Of a stretch of DNA of 64,000 nt, positions 7,390 to 56,654 are shown in pieces. The position numbers were made by a program, and so were the translations under genes. This DNA is from Escherichia coli. GTDB taxonomy: Bacteria > Pseudomonadota > Gammaproteobacteria > Enterobacterales > Enterobacteriaceae. The stretch's first letter is position 1. Every line of letters begins with the position of its first letter. The stretch lies in NCBI RefSeq assembly GCF_050920415.1, contig NZ_CP169309.1; one strand, written 5' to 3'. The notes below the pieces were generated by a model that saw only the letters and a list, made by a program, of their open reading frames with translations, had not been told where the DNA came from and ran no database searches.

Positions 7390-8976
7390 TTAATGCTCGC
7401 GAGTCTGGTGGAACTGAACGTCCGGATAACGTTCCTGTGCCAGGCGCAGGTTGACCATGCTGGTAGCGATGTAAGCGAGGTTATCGCCGCCATCAAGCGC
7501 CAGTTGGCTTTCGTTCTTACGCTTGAACTCTTCGAATTTCTTCGCGTCCGCACATTCTACCCAGCGTGCAGTGGCAACGTTGACTGACTCATACACTGCT
7601 TCAACGTTGTATTCGCTCTTCAGGCGCGCTACCACCACATCAAACTGCAGCACACCAACCGCACCAACGATCAGGTCGTTGTTGGAGATCGGACGGAACA
7701 CCTGCACCGCGCCCTCTTCGGAAAGCTGTACCAGCCCTTTGAGCAGCTGTTTTTGCTTCAGCGGATCTTTCAGGCGGATACGACGGAACAGTTCCGGCGC
7801 AAAGTTCGGGATACCGGTGAACTTCATCATCTCACCCTGGGTAAAGGTGTCGCCGATCTGAATAGTGCCGTGGTTGTGCAGACCAAGGATGTCGCCCGGA
7901 TACGCTTCTTCAACATGCGAACGGTCGCCCGCCATAAAGGTCAGCGCGTCGGAGATCACCACATCTTTCGCGGTGCGCACCTGGCGCAGCTTCATACCTT
8001 TTTCATATTTACCAGATACCACACGCATAAACGCCACGCGGTCGCGGTGTTTCGGGTCCATGTTGGCCTGAATTTTAAATACGAAGCCGGTAAATTTATC
8101 TTCGCTCGCCTCTACGATACGGGTATCAGTCTGACGCGGCATCGGCGCAGGTGCCCACTCTACCAGGCCATCCAGCATATGATCGACGCCGAAGTTACCC
8201 AGCGCAGTACCAAAGAACACTGGAGTAATTTCGCCCGCAAGGAACAATTCTTTGTCGAACTCGTTAGACGCGCCTTTCACCAGTTCCAGTTCGTCACGCA
8301 GCTGCTGTGCCAGATCTTCACCAACCGCAGCATCGAGATCCGGGTTATTCAGCCCTTTAACAATACGGACTTCCTGAATGGTGTGACCTTTACCGCTCTG
8401 ATAGAGATAGGTTTCGTCTTTATAAAGGTGGTAAACGCCTTTAAACAGCTTGCCGCAGCCAATCGGCCAGGTGATCGGCGCACAGCCGATTTTCAGCTCG
8501 TTCTCAACTTCATCGAGCAGCTCCATCGGATCGCGGATATCACGGTCAAGTTTGTTCATAAAGGTGAGGATCGGCGTATCGCGCAGACGGGTAACTTCCA
8601 TCAGCTTACGGGTACGATCTTCAACACCTTTTGCGGCGTCGATAACCATCAGGCAGCAGTCCACCGCCGTCAGGGTACGATAGGTATCTTCCGAGAAGTC
8701 TTCGTGCCCGGGGGTGTCGAGCAGGTTAACCAGGCAGTCGTGATACGGAAACTGCATCACAGACGTGGTAATGGAGATCCCACGCTGCTTTTCCATCTCC
8801 ATCCAGTCCGACTTAGCGTGCTGGTTGGAACCACGGCCTTTTACTGTACCGGCAGTCTGAATGGCCTGTCCGAACAGCAGCACCTTCTCGGTGATGGTCG
8901 TTTTACCGGCGTCCGGGTGAGAAATAATTGCAAAGGTTCTTCTTTTCGCTACCTCTGCGGCCAAAAGGCTTGTCAT
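7390..8976 (-). CDS. prfC: Peptide chain release factor 3, with a prophage-supplied 5' end
   Basis: [21 protein letters not shown]... GTPase matches RF3; N-terminus [13 protein letters not shown] differs from the native [14 protein letters not shown] remnant found at 56518-56564. Confidence 0.9.
8915..8928. repeat. Attachment-site core, prfC-proximal junction
   Basis: GGGTGAGAAATAAT identical to 56500-56513, extendable to ~20 bp with one mismatch; lies where the prfC coding sequence changes. Confidence 0.75.
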
Positions 8977-8992
8977 AATTGTTGTCTCTTTG

Positions 8993-9015
8993 ATTATGTA
9001 CAATCATATGTACAA
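8993..9015. repeat. Candidate integrase arm-type binding repeat, left arm
   Basis: ATTATGTACAATCATATGTACAA; near-identical copy at 56314-56335; further TGTACA motifs nearby. Confidence 0.45.
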
Positions 9016-9136
9016 AGAAAAATTCATGCCGCTGATTGTACATTTTGGAGGTATCAGAGCATAGCAGAACATGATCAGTAGGTGTATTTGTAGCCAAAGA
9101 ACATTTGTACATGCAGCAATCTTTACTCTATTGACA

Positions 9137-9180
9137 CTGTTTATTCATACAGTAAAAAATAGTGCTGTATACAAATACAG
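9137..9180. promoter_or_regulatory. Two LexA (SOS) boxes overlapping the promoter of the dinI-like gene
   Basis: CTGTTTATTCATACAG (9137-9152) and CTGTATACAAATACAG (9165-9180) fit CTGT-N8-ACAG; TTGACA at 9131-9136. Confidence 0.6.
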
Positions 9181-9195
9181 TATAGAGGGATTTTT

Positions 9196-9444
9196 ATGCG
9201 TATTGAGATCTGCATAGCCAAAGAGAAAATGACTAAAATGCCAAGCGGTGCTGTTGATGCGTTAAAGGAAGAATTAACTCGGCGCATCAGTAAGCGTTAT
9301 GACGATGTAGAAGTAATCGTAAAAGCCACCAGCAATGACGGGCTTTCTGTTACACGCACCGCAGATAAGGATTCTGCAAAAACATTTGTTCAGGAGACTC
9401 TGAAAGATACTTGGGAGTCTGCTGACGAGTGGTTTGTTCACTAA
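9196..9444 (+). CDS. DinI-like SOS-regulated protein (82 aa)
   Basis: MRIEICIAK...[16 protein letters not shown] resembles DinI (MRIEV...ETWESADDWFV); RBS AGAGGGA upstream. Confidence 0.75.
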
Positions 9445-9688
9445 TAGACACGTAAAATCGGTAACGGCTGGAAATAATTCAATACTCGCACTATCGGAAG
9501 TTCACCAGCCAGCCGCAGCACGTTCTTGCATACGACGTGCCTGCGGTTTCAACTCCCGCCAGCTCCACCACTTTTGATAGGACTGCAACCGGACAGCGGC
9601 AATAAAAACAGCCACTTACGGACACTGACCAGACAGTAAGCGGACTTAAAAAAGACAAAAATATACACGCAAAATGCACGTGCATTTC

Positions 9689-9724
9689 AAAAAAGCCTCT
9701 GATTGTGAAGTCAGAGGCTTTTCT
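9689..9724. terminator. Bidirectional intrinsic terminator between the dinI-like gene and tfa
   Basis: GCCTCTGA...TCAGAGGC hairpin flanked by an A-run and a T-run. Confidence 0.6.
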
Positions 9725-9768
9725 ATTTGTAACTAAGAGTAACAATTCAACATAACGCAACCTACCAA

Positions 9769-10341
9769 TTACGTCACGTCAAACGCTCTGATTGAACGCA
9801 AATCATCCAGATTATTCAGTTGTTCCTTCATCTCGCGCTGGCGTTCGTGGATTTTAAAGCCCTCCGCCACCATGGCCACCATCATGGCATCGTTCAGCGC
9901 AATAAGTTTCTCCCTGGTCAGTATGACGTTGTTATTATCCGCATCAGTCCAGAAAAAACCATCCGGAAGCAGCCCGGCCTGCGCTGTTGCAACCACGGGC
10001 GCAAGGCGTGACTGCGAGGTTTTTCCGCCATCAAAACGACGGCCATCAAACGTGAAAATAAACTCAACGTTTTCCTGACTGTCGCGCCATGCCTCAATTT
10101 CCCGCCTTTTGGCATCCTTTGCCGCTGCAATAAGTTCCGGCGTGACGGTGAACGGGGCGATTTCGCCCCATTTCCCGCTTTGCAGCTCCTGCCAGACATG
10201 CTGGCCTGTCGGGGCCATATCATCCTGTATGGCGGTATACAGGACGAACTCCGTTTCACCTTCAAATAACACCTCGCAGTCAACCGCACCATTTTCAAGA
10301 TAATGCGCGTTTCTGATGCCTTTCACCGCTCTGATTTTCAT
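9769..10341 (-). CDS. tfa: Tail fibre assembly protein
   Basis: 190 aa directly downstream of the side tail fibre gene; Tfa-like sequence. Confidence 0.75.
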   Translation of the reverse strand: MKIRAVKGIRNAHYLENGAVDCEVLFEGETEFVLYTAIQDDMAPTGQHVWQELQSGKWGEIAPFTVTPELIAAAKDAKRREIEAWRDSQENVEFIFTFDGRRFDGGKTSQSRLAPVVATAQAGLLPDGFFWTDADNNNVILTREKLIALNDAMMVAMVAEGFKIHERQREMKEQLNNLDDLRSIRAFDVT

Positions 10342-46353: not shown

Positions 46354-46574
46354 GCTGCACCTCCGAGATGCTTCATGTTTTTTCCGGAGCGAAAGGCTAT
46401 AAGCGGCATACTGACGCGGTAATTACGGCCCAGCGGTTCACAAATCACCTTCTGACATTCACGGTCAACCAGGCTAACACGTAGAACATGCCCTGCAGGC
46501 GTGGTGTACCACTGACCCGGTCGAGGACAACGGAAAGTCTGATTGGTAAACCGTTTGAAAATATTCCGGATCAT
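46350..46574 (-). CDS. Hypothetical protein (74 aa)
   Basis: ORF only. Confidence 0.3.
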   Translation of the reverse strand: MIRNIFKRFTNQTFRCPRPGQWYTTPAGHVLRVSLVDRECQKVICEPLGRNYRVSMPLIAFRSGKNMKHLGGAA

Positions 46575-47722
46575 TTGCGCCCCCTTACCTCGGAAGAGTT
46601 CAGCGACGAATGAATAAGACGGGCAAGAAATGCCGCATCGTTAATTCGGTCATACAGACTTACAGCCAGCGGTGATTCAGCTTTTTCCAGCATGGGATAA
46701 AGCTGCTGCAACCAGACCTGATGAATTGATGAAATGTAGGAATAGAGTACGCTGGCGTTATGTGCAACGTCGCTCGGTACAGCGGGCTTTGAAAGCTGTT
46801 TCTCCATCTGGTTAAAGGCATTGATGTATGCCTCTTTGAACTGGGCAGCACGTTTACCCGTGAAACCCATAGCAAGAAACGCAAAACCGTCGCGGGTTAT
46901 TTGATAGCAAGGTAGTTTGCGGCCTGTGCAATCGGTGTAATCACTCACCGAAAAATTGCGGGCAGTGAATGATGCGGAGCATTCAAGCGTGCGGATCTTT
47001 TTCAGTACATCGTCATGACGTTTGGAGAAGAAGTTGGCAACAGCCAGGGATGAAGTAACAGCCTGACCATCAACGATGGCAATTTCAGGTTGAGTGAGGG
47101 TTGGGATCGTAGCCATGATGGCAGCCTCTTTGGTGATTTTTAATAACTCACCACCAAGGCTTTCCACGACCTTATTGGTGGTGAGACGTACAGGGGTGGA
47201 AATACCGGTCACCAAAGAACCCGGCCCAACCGAAGTTGGCCCTGCACGCCCCACCATAATTTGGGCGTAATGCTGCTCATGACACAAAAAAACCGCAAGA
47301 GCGCGGTTGTGCGCTTTGGTGAATTCCGGGTTTCCACGCCCGGCACCCGCTTTATAAGGTGCCTGAACAGTGTAACGTCCCGGAATGGCAGAATCAATGT
47401 GCTGGTGGTCCTTCACACTCAACAAAATCACGCCTGAATTTCCACAAAGGGCTAAAGCACTCATGCGGGTAGTCTTTGCGAAGATAGATAACGCGCTGTG
47501 TTTCTGGCTCCCAACGAATAACATGAACATAAAGTCCTCTTCCGTCACGAAACCAGCGGTTAAGTTCCTGCACAACTCGCCCCCCACAGTCAGGTAAAGT
47601 TCTCTGTGGTTACTTACAGCCAGGAGATTTGGTAATCTGCATTCATGCCGTAACAACAGGTGTTCAGCGACGCTGACCACCAGCTGTTGCGACAAATGGT
47701 TATTTGCCGTTAAACTGTTCAT
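46571..47722 (-). CDS. Rha-family phage regulatory protein with an uninterrupted ~200 aa upstream in-frame extension
   Basis: Rha-like domain starts at MATIPTLTQPEIAIVDGQAVTSSLAVANFF (about 47116); the 5' 202 codons have no stop and no recognised family. Confidence 0.5.
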   Translation of the reverse strand: MNSLTANNHLSQQLVVSVAEHLLLRHECRLPNLLAVSNHRELYLTVGGELCRNLTAGFVTEEDFMFMLFVGSQKHSALSIFAKTTRMSALALCGNSGVILLSVKDHQHIDSAIPGRYTVQAPYKAGAGRGNPEFTKAHNRALAVFLCHEQHYAQIMVGRAGPTSVGPGSLVTGISTPVRLTTNKVVESLGGELLKITKEAAIMATIPTLTQPEIAIVDGQAVTSSLAVANFFSKRHDDVLKKIRTLECSASFTARNFSVSDYTDCTGRKLPCYQITRDGFAFLAMGFTGKRAAQFKEAYINAFNQMEKQLSKPAVPSDVAHNASVLYSYISSIHQVWLQQLYPMLEKAESPLAVSLYDRINDAAFLARLIHSSLNSSEVRGRK

Positions 47723-48604: not shown

Positions 48605-49279
48605 ATGAAAACAGTCCATGACATCCGGCGGTCTAACGCCAGAAAACTGAGAGATGGTGTTGGCGGGAATTCTTCCTTTGCCACCATGATTGATCGCGAA
48701 CCAACCCAGACCAGCAGGTTTATGGGAGATGGTGCTACTAAAAATATCGGTGACAGCATGGCACGGCACATCGAAAAATGTTTCGACCTGCCTGTCGGAT
48801 GGCTTGATCAAGAACACCAGACAACGAACATCACAAAAAAACCTGATGTTTCAATCACTAATAAACAAATAACGTTAGTCCCTGTCATATCATGGGTACA
48901 GGCCGGAGCATGGAAAGAAGTTGGCTATTCTGAGGTTGATTTGAGCACAACAGAAACATATCCCTGCCCTGTACCCTGTGGCGAAATGACTTATATATTG
49001 AGGGTGATTGGTGATTCAATGATTGATGAGTACCGTCCGGGGGACATGATTTTTGTCGATCCAGAAGTACCAGCCTGCCACGGCGATGACGTTATTGCAT
49101 TGATGCACGATACAGGTGAAACCACCTTCAAAAGGTTGATAGAAGACGGGACACAGCGTTATCTCAAAGCATTAAACCCCAACTGGCCTGAGCCTTACAT
49201 TAAGATAAACGGTAATTGCTCTATCATTGGTACAGTTATTTTCTCAGGAAAACCAAGAAGATACAAAATTAAAGCCTGA
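48605..49279 (+). CDS. cI: CI-type repressor with N-terminal HTH and C-terminal S24 (LexA-like) autopeptidase domain
   Basis: 224 aa; C-terminal ...YILRVIGDSMIDEYRPGDMIFVDPEV...KRLIEDG... typical of S24 peptidases. Confidence 0.8.
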   Translation: MKTVHDIRRSNARKLRDGVGGNSSFATMIDREPTQTSRFMGDGATKNIGDSMARHIEKCFDLPVGWLDQEHQTTNITKKPDVSITNKQITLVPVISWVQAGAWKEVGYSEVDLSTTETYPCPVPCGEMTYILRVIGDSMIDEYRPGDMIFVDPEVPACHGDDVIALMHDTGETTFKRLIEDGTQRYLKALNPNWPEPYIKINGNCSIIGTVIFSGKPRRYKIKA

Positions 49280-55012: not shown

Positions 55013-56269
55013 TCAAAGTGTGCTAGGAGATTTGGTTATGTTCAGGTGATACAAACCGTCAGTTTGACAATTAACAATCGATTCAACCCTCTTCCACCAT
55101 GCCAGGTAAGCTTTACGCTGTTCTTCTAGATAATCACTCTTATCATAAACTTGCCATACCCCTGGCAGCTTATGACCAAGCATAATTTCTGCGATATGAG
55201 GCGCAGTAAGATCAGAAAAATTTGTTCGAGCTGTACGTCTCAAGTCATGAAGAGACCAATGAGGGAATTGATATCCTAAACACCGCCATGCGTACTGCAT
55301 TAAATTGTAAGGCAGCGACTGCAATGATGTCCGACCAACGGGTTCCCTGCTTCCTTCCTTAGTAAAAAGCATATCGGAACCATTGTTCATAGAGATAGCG
55401 TACTTTATAAGCTCTTCAACCGGTTCAATAATGGGCCGCTTTAGCGGTTCGCCTGTTATCTCCCCAGTCTTATGTCGTTCTGGTGGTACAGTCCATACTT
55501 TATTAATGAAATCAAAATCGTCCACCCGGGCGGTAATTAGCTCTGAACTACGGCAACCAAAATGCAGCAATAGTTTAATGAAGGCCCGGTATTTAGGAAC
55601 CATTCGAGAACCATCGATCGCAGCATAAAGGATTTTAATTTCATCATGTGTCAGAAACCGTTTCTTCTGACCTTTACGGATATCCATATCTTTACCCGTG
55701 ATATCCGACAGCGGGCGAGTTTCAATGAGCTTTCTCTTATACGCCCAGACATGGGCCTGCTTTGCGTTAATTAGCAATCGGTCTGCTATTGCTGGAGTCT
55801 TAGTGCTAAGAGGCTCCAGGACTTCTAACCAATCATGCAATGTAGCTGCATCGTGAGGGATATTCCCGATTTTAGAGAACAGGTGCAGCTCAAACGAGCG
55901 AAGTATCTGTTCAGAACCTTTTTTATTTTTTACACAATATGCTTCATACCAAGCACGGATCACAGACTCTACCGTCATGGCTTCAGTAGCTTTTCGTTTT
56001 TCAGCCTGCTTGACCAATCGTGGATTACGGTTTGACTCGAGTTCACCACGAAGACGGATAACTTCTTCTCTGGCCTCTTTTAATCCAGTTGCCGGGTAAG
56101 TTCCGATATCAAGACGCTCACCTTTCCCTGCCCATTGATAACGATATTGGAACACTACGCGACCTTTCGGTGATACTCTGACAGACAGACCATCACGATC
56201 GGATTTAACCAAAACCTTATCACGTTCCTTTCCAACGACTGAACGCAACCACGCATCAGACAGCGCCAT
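55013..56269 (-). CDS. int: Tyrosine site-specific integrase
   Basis: 418 aa; C-terminal catalytic region with ...HDLRRT... and ...MLGH...; adjacent to the att core. Confidence 0.9.
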   Translation of the reverse strand: MALSDAWLRSVVGKERDKVLVKSDRDGLSVRVSPKGRVVFQYRYQWAGKGERLDIGTYPATGLKEAREEVIRLRGELESNRNPRLVKQAEKRKATEAMTVESVIRAWYEAYCVKNKKGSEQILRSFELHLFSKIGNIPHDAATLHDWLEVLEPLSTKTPAIADRLLINAKQAHVWAYKRKLIETRPLSDITGKDMDIRKGQKKRFLTHDEIKILYAAIDGSRMVPKYRAFIKLLLHFGCRSSELITARVDDFDFINKVWTVPPERHKTGEITGEPLKRPIIEPVEELIKYAISMNNGSDMLFTKEGSREPVGRTSLQSLPYNLMQYAWRCLGYQFPHWSLHDLRRTARTNFSDLTAPHIAEIMLGHKLPGVWQVYDKSDYLEEQRKAYLAWWKRVESIVNCQTDGLYHLNITKSPSTL

Positions 56270-56313
56270 TACTCACCTTGTACAAATCGCAAAACACCTC
56301 TGCTGTTTTGTAC

Positions 56314-56335
56314 ATTATGTACAAGCATATGTACA
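56314..56335. repeat. Candidate integrase arm-type binding repeat, right arm
   Basis: ATTATGTACAAGCATATGTACA, near-identical to 8993-9015; further TGTACA motifs at 56280-56310. Confidence 0.45.
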
Positions 56336-56499: not shown

Positions 56500-56513
56500 G
56501 GGTGAGAAATAAT
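56500..56513. repeat. Attachment-site core, yjjG-proximal junction
   Basis: GGGTGAGAAATAAT, identical to 8915-8928. Confidence 0.75.
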
Positions 56514-56517
56514 GGCA

Positions 56518-56564
56518 AAAGTGCGGCGCTTCGCCACCTCTTGCAAATAAGGAGACAACGTCAT
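56518..56564 (-). pseudogene. prfC: Displaced native 5' end of prfC (the att core 56500-56513 encodes its last residues)
   Basis: Reverse strand reads ATGACGTTGTCTCCTTATTTGCAAGAGGTGGCGAAGCGCCGCACTTTTGCCATTATTTCTCACCC = [22 protein letters not shown], then leaves the prfC frame at the core. Confidence 0.8.
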
Positions 56565-56654
56565 AATTCTTTCTTCTTGAGTAAGCGGCATCGCGCCGCG
56601 CTTGTTGAAAACGAAAAATTGCGGCTATTTTACCCATCAACGGGGGGGAGGCAA

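Follow-up and report, generated by a model that had tools for sequence, protein, structure and literature searches.

The dinI-like gene at the prfC side of a lambda-like prophage in this Escherichia coli DNA probably forms a self-contained, SOS-inducible moron that is silenced by LexA in the lysogen and whose product acts on the groove of the RecA filament. The window, that is, the whole 64 kb stretch analysed here, contains the prophage together with its two chromosomal junctions, and the gene lies directly inside the left junction with a promoter and a terminator of its own. The elements of the locus are as follows, in window coordinates.

8915 to 8928, strand not applicable: att core GGGTGAGAAATAAT, a 14 bp direct repeat with its second copy at 56500 to 56513; the first copy lies inside prfC
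8997 to 9111, strand not applicable: att arm adjoining the cassette, with TGTACA at 8997, 9009, 9037 and 9106
9131 to 9136, plus strand: -35 hexamer TTGACA, from the promoter scan; also the left edge of the conserved cassette
9135 to 9154, strand not applicable: LexA box 1, CACTGTTTATTCATACAGTA, occupying the promoter spacer; retained in 55 of 56 related loci
9155 to 9160, plus strand: -10 hexamer AAAAAT, 18 nt past the -35 hexamer, from the promoter scan
9163 to 9182, strand not applicable: LexA box 2, TGCTGTATACAAATACAGTA, over the predicted transcription start; begins 28 bp after box 1
9185 to 9189, plus strand: ribosome-binding site GAGGG, 6 nt 5' of the ATG, read from the sequence and conserved in relatives
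9196 to 9444, plus strand: DinI-like coding sequence with ATG start, 82 amino acids and a TAA stop (Pfam PF06183, PDB 1GHH, phrog_189)
9445 to 9510, plus strand: 3' untranslated spacer, common to most relatives and travelling with the cassette
9511 to 9549, plus strand: G+C-rich terminator hairpin with a TTT tail, recognized from folds and stem variants; right edge of the conserved cassette
9691 to 9722, strand not applicable: strong two-way terminator, from the terminator scan, with 14 pairs and an A-run and a T-run on its two sides

The promoter is of the sigma-70 type, and its two hexamers match 10 of 12 positions in the scan. A pattern search for CTGT-N8-ACAG places two sites upstream of the dinI-like gene, at 9137-9152 and 9165-9180; the 64 kb window contains 8 such matches, compared to 0.77 expected from shuffled sequences, and no shuffle reached 8. 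Box 1 agrees with the LexA consensus TACTGTATATATATACAGTA at 16 of 20 positions and box 2 at 17 of 20. Scored with a symmetrised heterology-index matrix built from about 29 E. coli LexA operators, which gives approximate values only, box 1 has an index of 4.15 and box 2 of 4.09, while the training operators span 2.0 to 11.8. By this measure both boxes score inside the range of the strong natural LexA operators in the training set. Sites with an index of 9 or lower number only four in the 64 kb, compared to 0.05 per shuffle. The gene thus has two operators of the kind that defines the LexA regulon, CTGT-N8-ACAG with a low heterology index, and both overlap the promoter: box 1 lies between the hexamers, and box 2, which begins 3 nt past the -10 hexamer, covers the predicted start of transcription. 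The scan criteria gave no minus-strand promoter between 8979 and 9200, and it is unlikely that these boxes also control the hybrid prfC gene, which is transcribed in the opposite direction.

Both boxes are present in 55 of the 56 related viral loci that have enough upstream sequence, and their spacing is nearly constant (28 bp in 53 loci, 27 bp in 2). Their CTGT and ACAG positions are invariant among relatives, in which third codon positions vary. Calculated on 40 distinct cassette sequences, nucleotide diversity amounts to 0.024 and 0.008 for the -35 and -10 hexamers and to 0.04-0.06 for the LexA boxes, compared to 0.25 just 5' of the -35 hexamer. The values for codon positions 1, 2 and 3 of the gene are 0.001, 0.006 and 0.082, by which measure the coding sequence is under strong purifying selection. 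We also examined nine phage homologues whose proteins range from 99% to 42% identity (those of cdtI, PhiR12_5, Klebsiella P18-100, BP-4795, Kp4882-1, YeP1, PHB10, Aeromonas pAEv1818 and Gifsy-2), and at least one strong LexA box lies upstream in all nine. Among them only the E. coli edge-type clade has two boxes, an arrangement that has partly decayed in BP-4795. A single box, at about -35 to -39, is present in Gifsy-2, PHB10, Kp4882-1 and the Aeromonas phage, and the box of YeP1 is located 5' of an additional upstream ORF. In Gifsy-2, PHB10 and pAEv1818 the dinI homologue has replication genes as neighbours, in the early or nin region.

The preliminary description had placed the gene under SOS control through two well-formed LexA boxes overlapping its promoter. 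Both boxes are found where it put them, and the strength of the operators, their retention in almost all related loci and the LexA control of the Gifsy homologues argue for the regulation that it proposed. For this particular copy we infer LexA binding and derepression from the sequence of its promoter.

The limits of the unit are sharp. Comparison with viral contigs shows that what the window shares with other phages here starts exactly at the -35 hexamer and stops just past the hairpin. In 80 viral contigs encoding a protein at least 98% identical to that of the window, the upstream sequences fall into several unrelated classes that meet exactly at TTGACA; downstream of the gene, about 100 nt are common to relatives up to the hairpin, beyond which they diverge. 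Hairpin pairing was judged from single-sequence folds and inspection of variants: the window copy folds at -20 kcal/mol, 15 of 15 variants fold, and the stem variants GCAG.../...CTGC and GCGG.../...CCGC preserve pairing, with compensated changes in several variants. RNAalifold returned no structure for the hairpin alignment, in which a one-base bulge puts the sequences out of register. The T-run that follows the hairpin is only TTT in the window copy and long in many variants. Further downstream, the two-way terminator separates the cassette from a converging tail-fibre assembly gene (9769-10341, minus strand). The cassette has a G+C content of 42.5%, compared to 54.6% in the adjacent tail-fibre region. 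An own promoter and terminator, mosaic breakpoints at both ends of the unit and lower G+C fit the definition of a moron, the terminator T-run being weak in the window copy. The cassette is the widely shared part of the queried locus 8980-9770, which has matches in 2726 of 5426 complete E. coli genomes, at up to 7 places per genome.

Two further products of the unit were considered and set aside. A second gene or an antirepressor 3' of the dinI-like gene would have to be encoded by ORF 9434-9577 (47 amino acids, TTG start), the only ORF there, which has no family match; since similarity between phages ends at the hairpin, about 100 nt past the stop codon, we reject a downstream antirepressor of the Gifsy kind. 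A small RNA from the 3' region 9445-9549 is unsupported, as the diversity of the spacer (0.10) is about that of third codon positions (0.08) and no extra constraint on it is seen. On the opposite strand, the Rfam family CssrB, a candidate chromosomal small RNA of Shigella, gives a sub-threshold match at 9514-9687 (25.7 bits compared to a gathering score of 76, E 0.006). This match spans the non-coding stretch from the hairpin to the two-way terminator, and its best-aligned part is the hairpin itself.

The prophage extends from 8929 to 56513 (47.6 kb) and is integrated in the 5' end of prfC. Its limits follow from the att repeats and from an in silico joining of the outer flanks, which yields an uninterrupted prfC-yjjG junction. 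Of 5426 complete E. coli genomes, 4717 match this junction across 80% or more of the query (best matches: 100% coverage, 99.7% identity). The minus-strand prfC gene lies directly left of the cassette, and the -35 hexamer sits 203 bp inward of the att core with no gene in between. The dinI-like unit is therefore the first prophage gene on the prfC side, at the tail-fibre end, and its position directly inside the att junction, like its reading as a moron, stands as described in the preliminary account. The second att copy is adjoined by the integrase gene (55013-56269), whose product has an arm-binding domain, and by the displaced native 5' end of prfC. The window has 10 TGTACA hexamers, of which eight fall into the two att arms (8997-9111 and 56279-56335), four in each; this clustering and the arm-DNA-binding domain of the integrase suggest that these eight are probably integrase arm-type sites. 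The last hexamer of the left arm (9106) is 20 bp from the -35 hexamer of the dinI-like gene. That the LexA boxes are themselves parts of the att recombination architecture is unlikely, because the cassette occurs in at least four unrelated upstream contexts and its distance from the record end varies among phages.

Integration also rebuilds prfC. Phage DNA supplies the start codon (8978, minus strand), the first ~17 codons and the upstream region (8915-9003), and the native 5' end of the gene remains beside yjjG (56500-56565). Our scan found no clear promoter for the hybrid prfC.

The product of the cassette belongs to the DinI family, which confirms that the gene is a phage-borne relative of dinI. 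The 82-residue ORF matches Pfam DinI (PF06183) over profile positions 1-63 of 63 with an E value of 1.5e-19 and 70.5 bits (cutoff 24.2), and its whole length aligns with E. coli DinI (PDB 1GHH/7YWA; E 2.9e-13), with 47% identity to the K-12 protein. It also matches phrog_189, "RecA filament binding protein DinI" (E 5.8e-31), covering only positions 71-149 of this 151-position profile, the DinI half. With about 73 bits (73.2), the protein stays below the NCBIfam DinI equivalog cutoff of 111 (NF007893), and we therefore consider it a DinI paralogue rather than an orthologue, whose properties may differ. The RefSeq label "DinI-like family protein" is correct. Recent capture of the host gene was rejected, since the cassette and the K-12 dinI locus are not similar in nucleotide sequence, which makes the phage gene an old paralogue.

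[quoted passage not shown] Their counterparts in the window protein are M15 for L13, L23 for L21, E26 for E24, D71 for E69, W73 for W71, E78 for D76, W79 for W77 and F80 for F78. Five of these eight RecA-contact residues are thus identical and the other three are conservative replacements (L to M, E to D and D to E).

These observations suggest the following mechanism. In the lysogen, dimers of host LexA would occupy the two strong operators, in the spacer and over the transcription start, and keep the promoter tightly shut, as its sequence and the tested homologues would predict. DNA damage would lead to RecA filaments and LexA self-cleavage, upon which the dinI-like promoter would fire. Judging from the conserved contact residues, the paralogue would then bind in the groove of the RecA filament, which is also the docking site of LexA, UmuD and lambda-type CI repressors. 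It would add to the DinI pool of the cell and shift the co-protease activity and filament behaviour of RecA in the SOS response. Our best guess is a higher damage threshold for cleavage of CI and UmuD, or a delay in it, the direction of the effect being the weakest step; cells with more prophage copies would show a stronger effect.

The prophage CI repressor (48605-49279, plus strand) has an S24 peptidase and is of the self-cleaving type. A shared RecA groove and an S24-type CI would place the DinI-like protein where it could alter both the induction of its own prophage and UmuD processing. E. coli DinI stabilises RecA filaments at stoichiometric levels (PMC6590174; PMC9926225), so the DinI-like protein could favour induction instead. 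At high levels E. coli DinI inhibits the co-protease and recombinase functions of RecA, an effect that is concentration-dependent (PMC6590174); with up to 7 matches per genome, dose may therefore matter. A role of the gene in tuning induction is a hypothesis with one negative precedent: after non-polar deletion of the Gifsy-1 and Gifsy-3 dinI homologues, neither the level nor the rate of induction differed significantly (PMC3121763). The prophage also encodes a 383-residue protein with Ash and Rha domains (46571-47722, minus strand), annotated as antirepressor in related phage records. With an S24-type CI and this Ash/Rha protein, induction may have more than one input.

The outcome of the Gifsy deletions would also be expected if the cassette were a lysogen-fitness gene from which the host benefits, extra DinI limiting UmuD cleavage and mutagenesis or aiding RecA storage and recovery, with prophage induction not being the target. 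This reading is possible, though we lean against it. High doses of DinI inhibit UmuD cleavage (PMC6590174) and favour RecA storage structures (PMC6363387), a prophage DinI-like gene belongs to the gene groups linked to evolving quinolone resistance in E. coli (PMC10575684), and about half of the complete E. coli genomes match the queried locus. However, no phenotype is reported for any prophage copy. Such a benefit is compatible with the LexA-silenced moron acting on RecA that we favour, from which it differs only in the selective advantage that maintains the gene.

Alternatively, the gene could serve the phage during lytic growth or fresh infection, for example by managing RecA on phage DNA that is replicating or recombining or by blunting a RecA-dependent host response, with the LexA boxes doing no more than silencing it in the lysogen. 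The position of the homologue near replication genes, in the early or nin region, in Gifsy-2, PHB10 and pAEv1818 fits this idea, and DinI changed the outcome of a phage-defence assay (PMC13192584). The window copy, however, stands alone at the far end of the prophage, runs against the direction of the late genes and is equipped with its own LexA-controlled promoter and its terminator. As LexA is intact on infection, the gene would stay off, and we judge a lytic or infection role improbable.

Still less probable, in our view, is that the gene is a roleless remnant of a LexA-controlled antirepressor module, such as the Tum fusion of phage 186 or the dinI-antirepressor-irsA series of Gifsy, that has lost its partner. 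The restriction of the phrog_189 match to the DinI half would agree with such an origin, as would the DinI-like second half of Tum and the antirepressor gene that follows Gifsy dinI (PMC3121763), and the LexA box ahead of an extra ORF in YeP1. Strong purifying selection (0.001, 0.006 and 0.082 at the three codon positions) argues against a gene that has lost its function, as do the conservation of both operators, of the promoter hexamers and of all RecA-contact residues, and the spread of the intact cassette over phages with different flanks. Finally, chance palindromes in A+T-rich DNA (42.5% G+C) upstream of a constitutive or unexpressed gene are effectively refuted by conservation and almost certainly not the explanation, as 0.05 such sites are expected per 64 kb whereas two lie 28 bp apart exactly on the promoter, with CTGT and ACAG invariant across relatives and the same feature in distant homologues.

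The four strong LexA boxes of the window all lie within the prophage, two at the dinI-like gene, one at a KilA-N gene and one at a methyltransferase gene. The box CACTGTTCATAAATACAGTA (43612-43631, plus strand; approximate heterology index 5.6) stands before the ORF of a KilA-N regulator (42710-43621, minus strand), upstream of or overlapping its start, with a hairpin upstream as at the Gifsy LexA sites. Alignment to the PHROG family suggests that the true start of this ORF is residue 33, which would put the box ~90 nt upstream, and the gene could be a LexA-controlled, antirepressor-like gene. Phages mEp460, SfV and Stx2a_1447 do not have this box; the window carries there a mosaic replacement of ~400 bp that it has in common with SfIV and PhiR49_1. 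The fourth box (39614-39633), with a heterology index of about 5.0, falls within the first codons of an ORF for a DNA adenine methyltransferase (38583-39641, minus strand), just downstream of Q. Between Q and the lysis genes, at 37685-38543 (minus strand), are tRNA-Met, tRNA-Arg(tct) and an ORF with a TerB domain, at the position that the toxin occupies in Stx phages; no stx genes were seen among the ORFs examined in the window.

A 108-residue protein (44069-44395, minus strand) consists of the LexA DNA-binding domain only, with no cleavage site and no S24 or dimerisation domain. It matches Pfam PF01726 (E 2.9e-19) and aligns to residues 4-69 of E. coli LexA, and its recognition helix is largely kept (RSVNAAVEHLRAL compared to RSPNAAEEHLKAL). 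Its gene lies between the methyltransferase gene and rusA in the nin region. The protein is widespread in lambdoid phages (mEp460, SfV, SfII, cdtI and Stx2 phages), where it is annotated as "LexA-like protein" or "transcriptional repressor", and our literature search found no functional study of such a LexA-domain-only phage protein. We think it doubtful that the dinI-like cassette is part of a phage-private circuit in which this protein acts on LexA boxes. If it did bind the same boxes, the dinI-like gene, and perhaps host SOS genes, would be silenced again after the onset of early lytic transcription in a way that RecA could not reverse, and the DinI-like protein would be present only in a brief pulse, from LexA cleavage until the commitment to lysis.

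A prophage dinI-like gene as such is ordinary and already annotated, and the near-identical copies in cdtI and VT1-Sakai are already known. The two operators of the E. coli edge-type copies are an annotation detail and not a new kind of system. The analysis has a modest value in defining the exact mosaic boundaries of a unit made of a dual-operator promoter, gene and terminator, of which we found no such account for the E. coli edge-type copies. With up to 7 locus matches per strain and a dose-dependent action of DinI on the groove used by CI-type repressors, the combined effect of several prophage DinI paralogues on the induction of Stx and Cdt toxin phages becomes a testable question. The presence of several SOS-linked elements in one prophage is less ordinary than the dinI-like gene itself, and they are worth examining together with the cassette.

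Among known systems, the chromosomal DinI of E. coli (b1061; PDB 1GHH, 7YWA) has the same length as the window protein, shares the conserved C-terminal TWESAD(D/E)WFV helix and is also LexA-regulated, but the K-12 dinI gene has a single LexA box, at -39, instead of two. The Tum protein of coliphage 186, which occurs in a split form in PSP3 and Fels-2, is LexA-controlled and has a DinI-like domain (PMC3121763), and it belongs to the same PHROG family. Tum has 146 residues, the N-terminal half being an antirepressor, whereas the window protein, with 82 residues matching phrog_189 at 71-149 only, is the DinI half alone and hence not a fusion of the Tum type.

The dinI homologues of the Salmonella prophages Gifsy-1, -2 and -3 are, like the window gene, phage-borne members of the DinI family with a LexA box on the promoter, and a terminator-like palindrome lies upstream of them. 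Experiments have demonstrated their SOS induction (PMC3121763; PMC8072944): nalidixic acid induces them 23-fold in Gifsy-1, 14-fold in Gifsy-2 and 4.6-fold in Gifsy-3 (PMC3121763; PMC8072944). The Gifsy and window proteins are 42% identical, and the Gifsy genes have one box instead of two and lie near replication and nin genes rather than at the edge. In Gifsy, the dinI homologues head a LexA-controlled operon encoding an antirepressor that is needed for induction (PMC3121763), whereas the window gene lies directly before a terminator in a prophage with a self-cleaving S24 repressor. With neither the downstream antirepressor and irsA genes nor the non-cleavable repressor of that arrangement, it is not part of a Gifsy-type operon.

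The closest counterparts are found in E. coli lambdoid phages. The dual-operator promoter of the E. coli edge-type copies did not come up in our literature search, which on E. coli prophage DinI-like genes returned only annotations and speculation, with no direct tests; papers on Stx phages and on Citrobacter prophages mention such genes as cargo and suggest, as speculation, a limiting effect on induction (PMC8456039; PMC6456863). The DinI-like proteins of cdtI, 2H10, mEp460_4F5, VT1-Sakai and the Stx1a, Stx2a and Stx2c phages are 92.7-98.8% identical to that of the window; those of cdtI (gp30, "RecA filament binding protein DinI"), 2H10 and mEp460_4F5 reach 98.8%, and H0001 of VT1-Sakai 95%. 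The Stx1a and Stx2c phage records show 92.6% DNA identity to the window over promoter, gene and hairpin, and cdtI and related viral contigs have the same promoter with two LexA boxes. In substance, nothing sets the window gene apart from these copies. Its position at the prophage edge is typical as well: most other phage records have the gene at a distance of 0.2-2.4 kb from their end. Both cdtI and 2H10 share the attP arm with the window, and the circular map of cdtI runs integrase, attP, dinI. The cdtI and window prophages part beyond the hairpin, where cdtI carries cdtCBA and cif, whereas the window prophage continues with non-coding DNA and then its tail-fibre genes.
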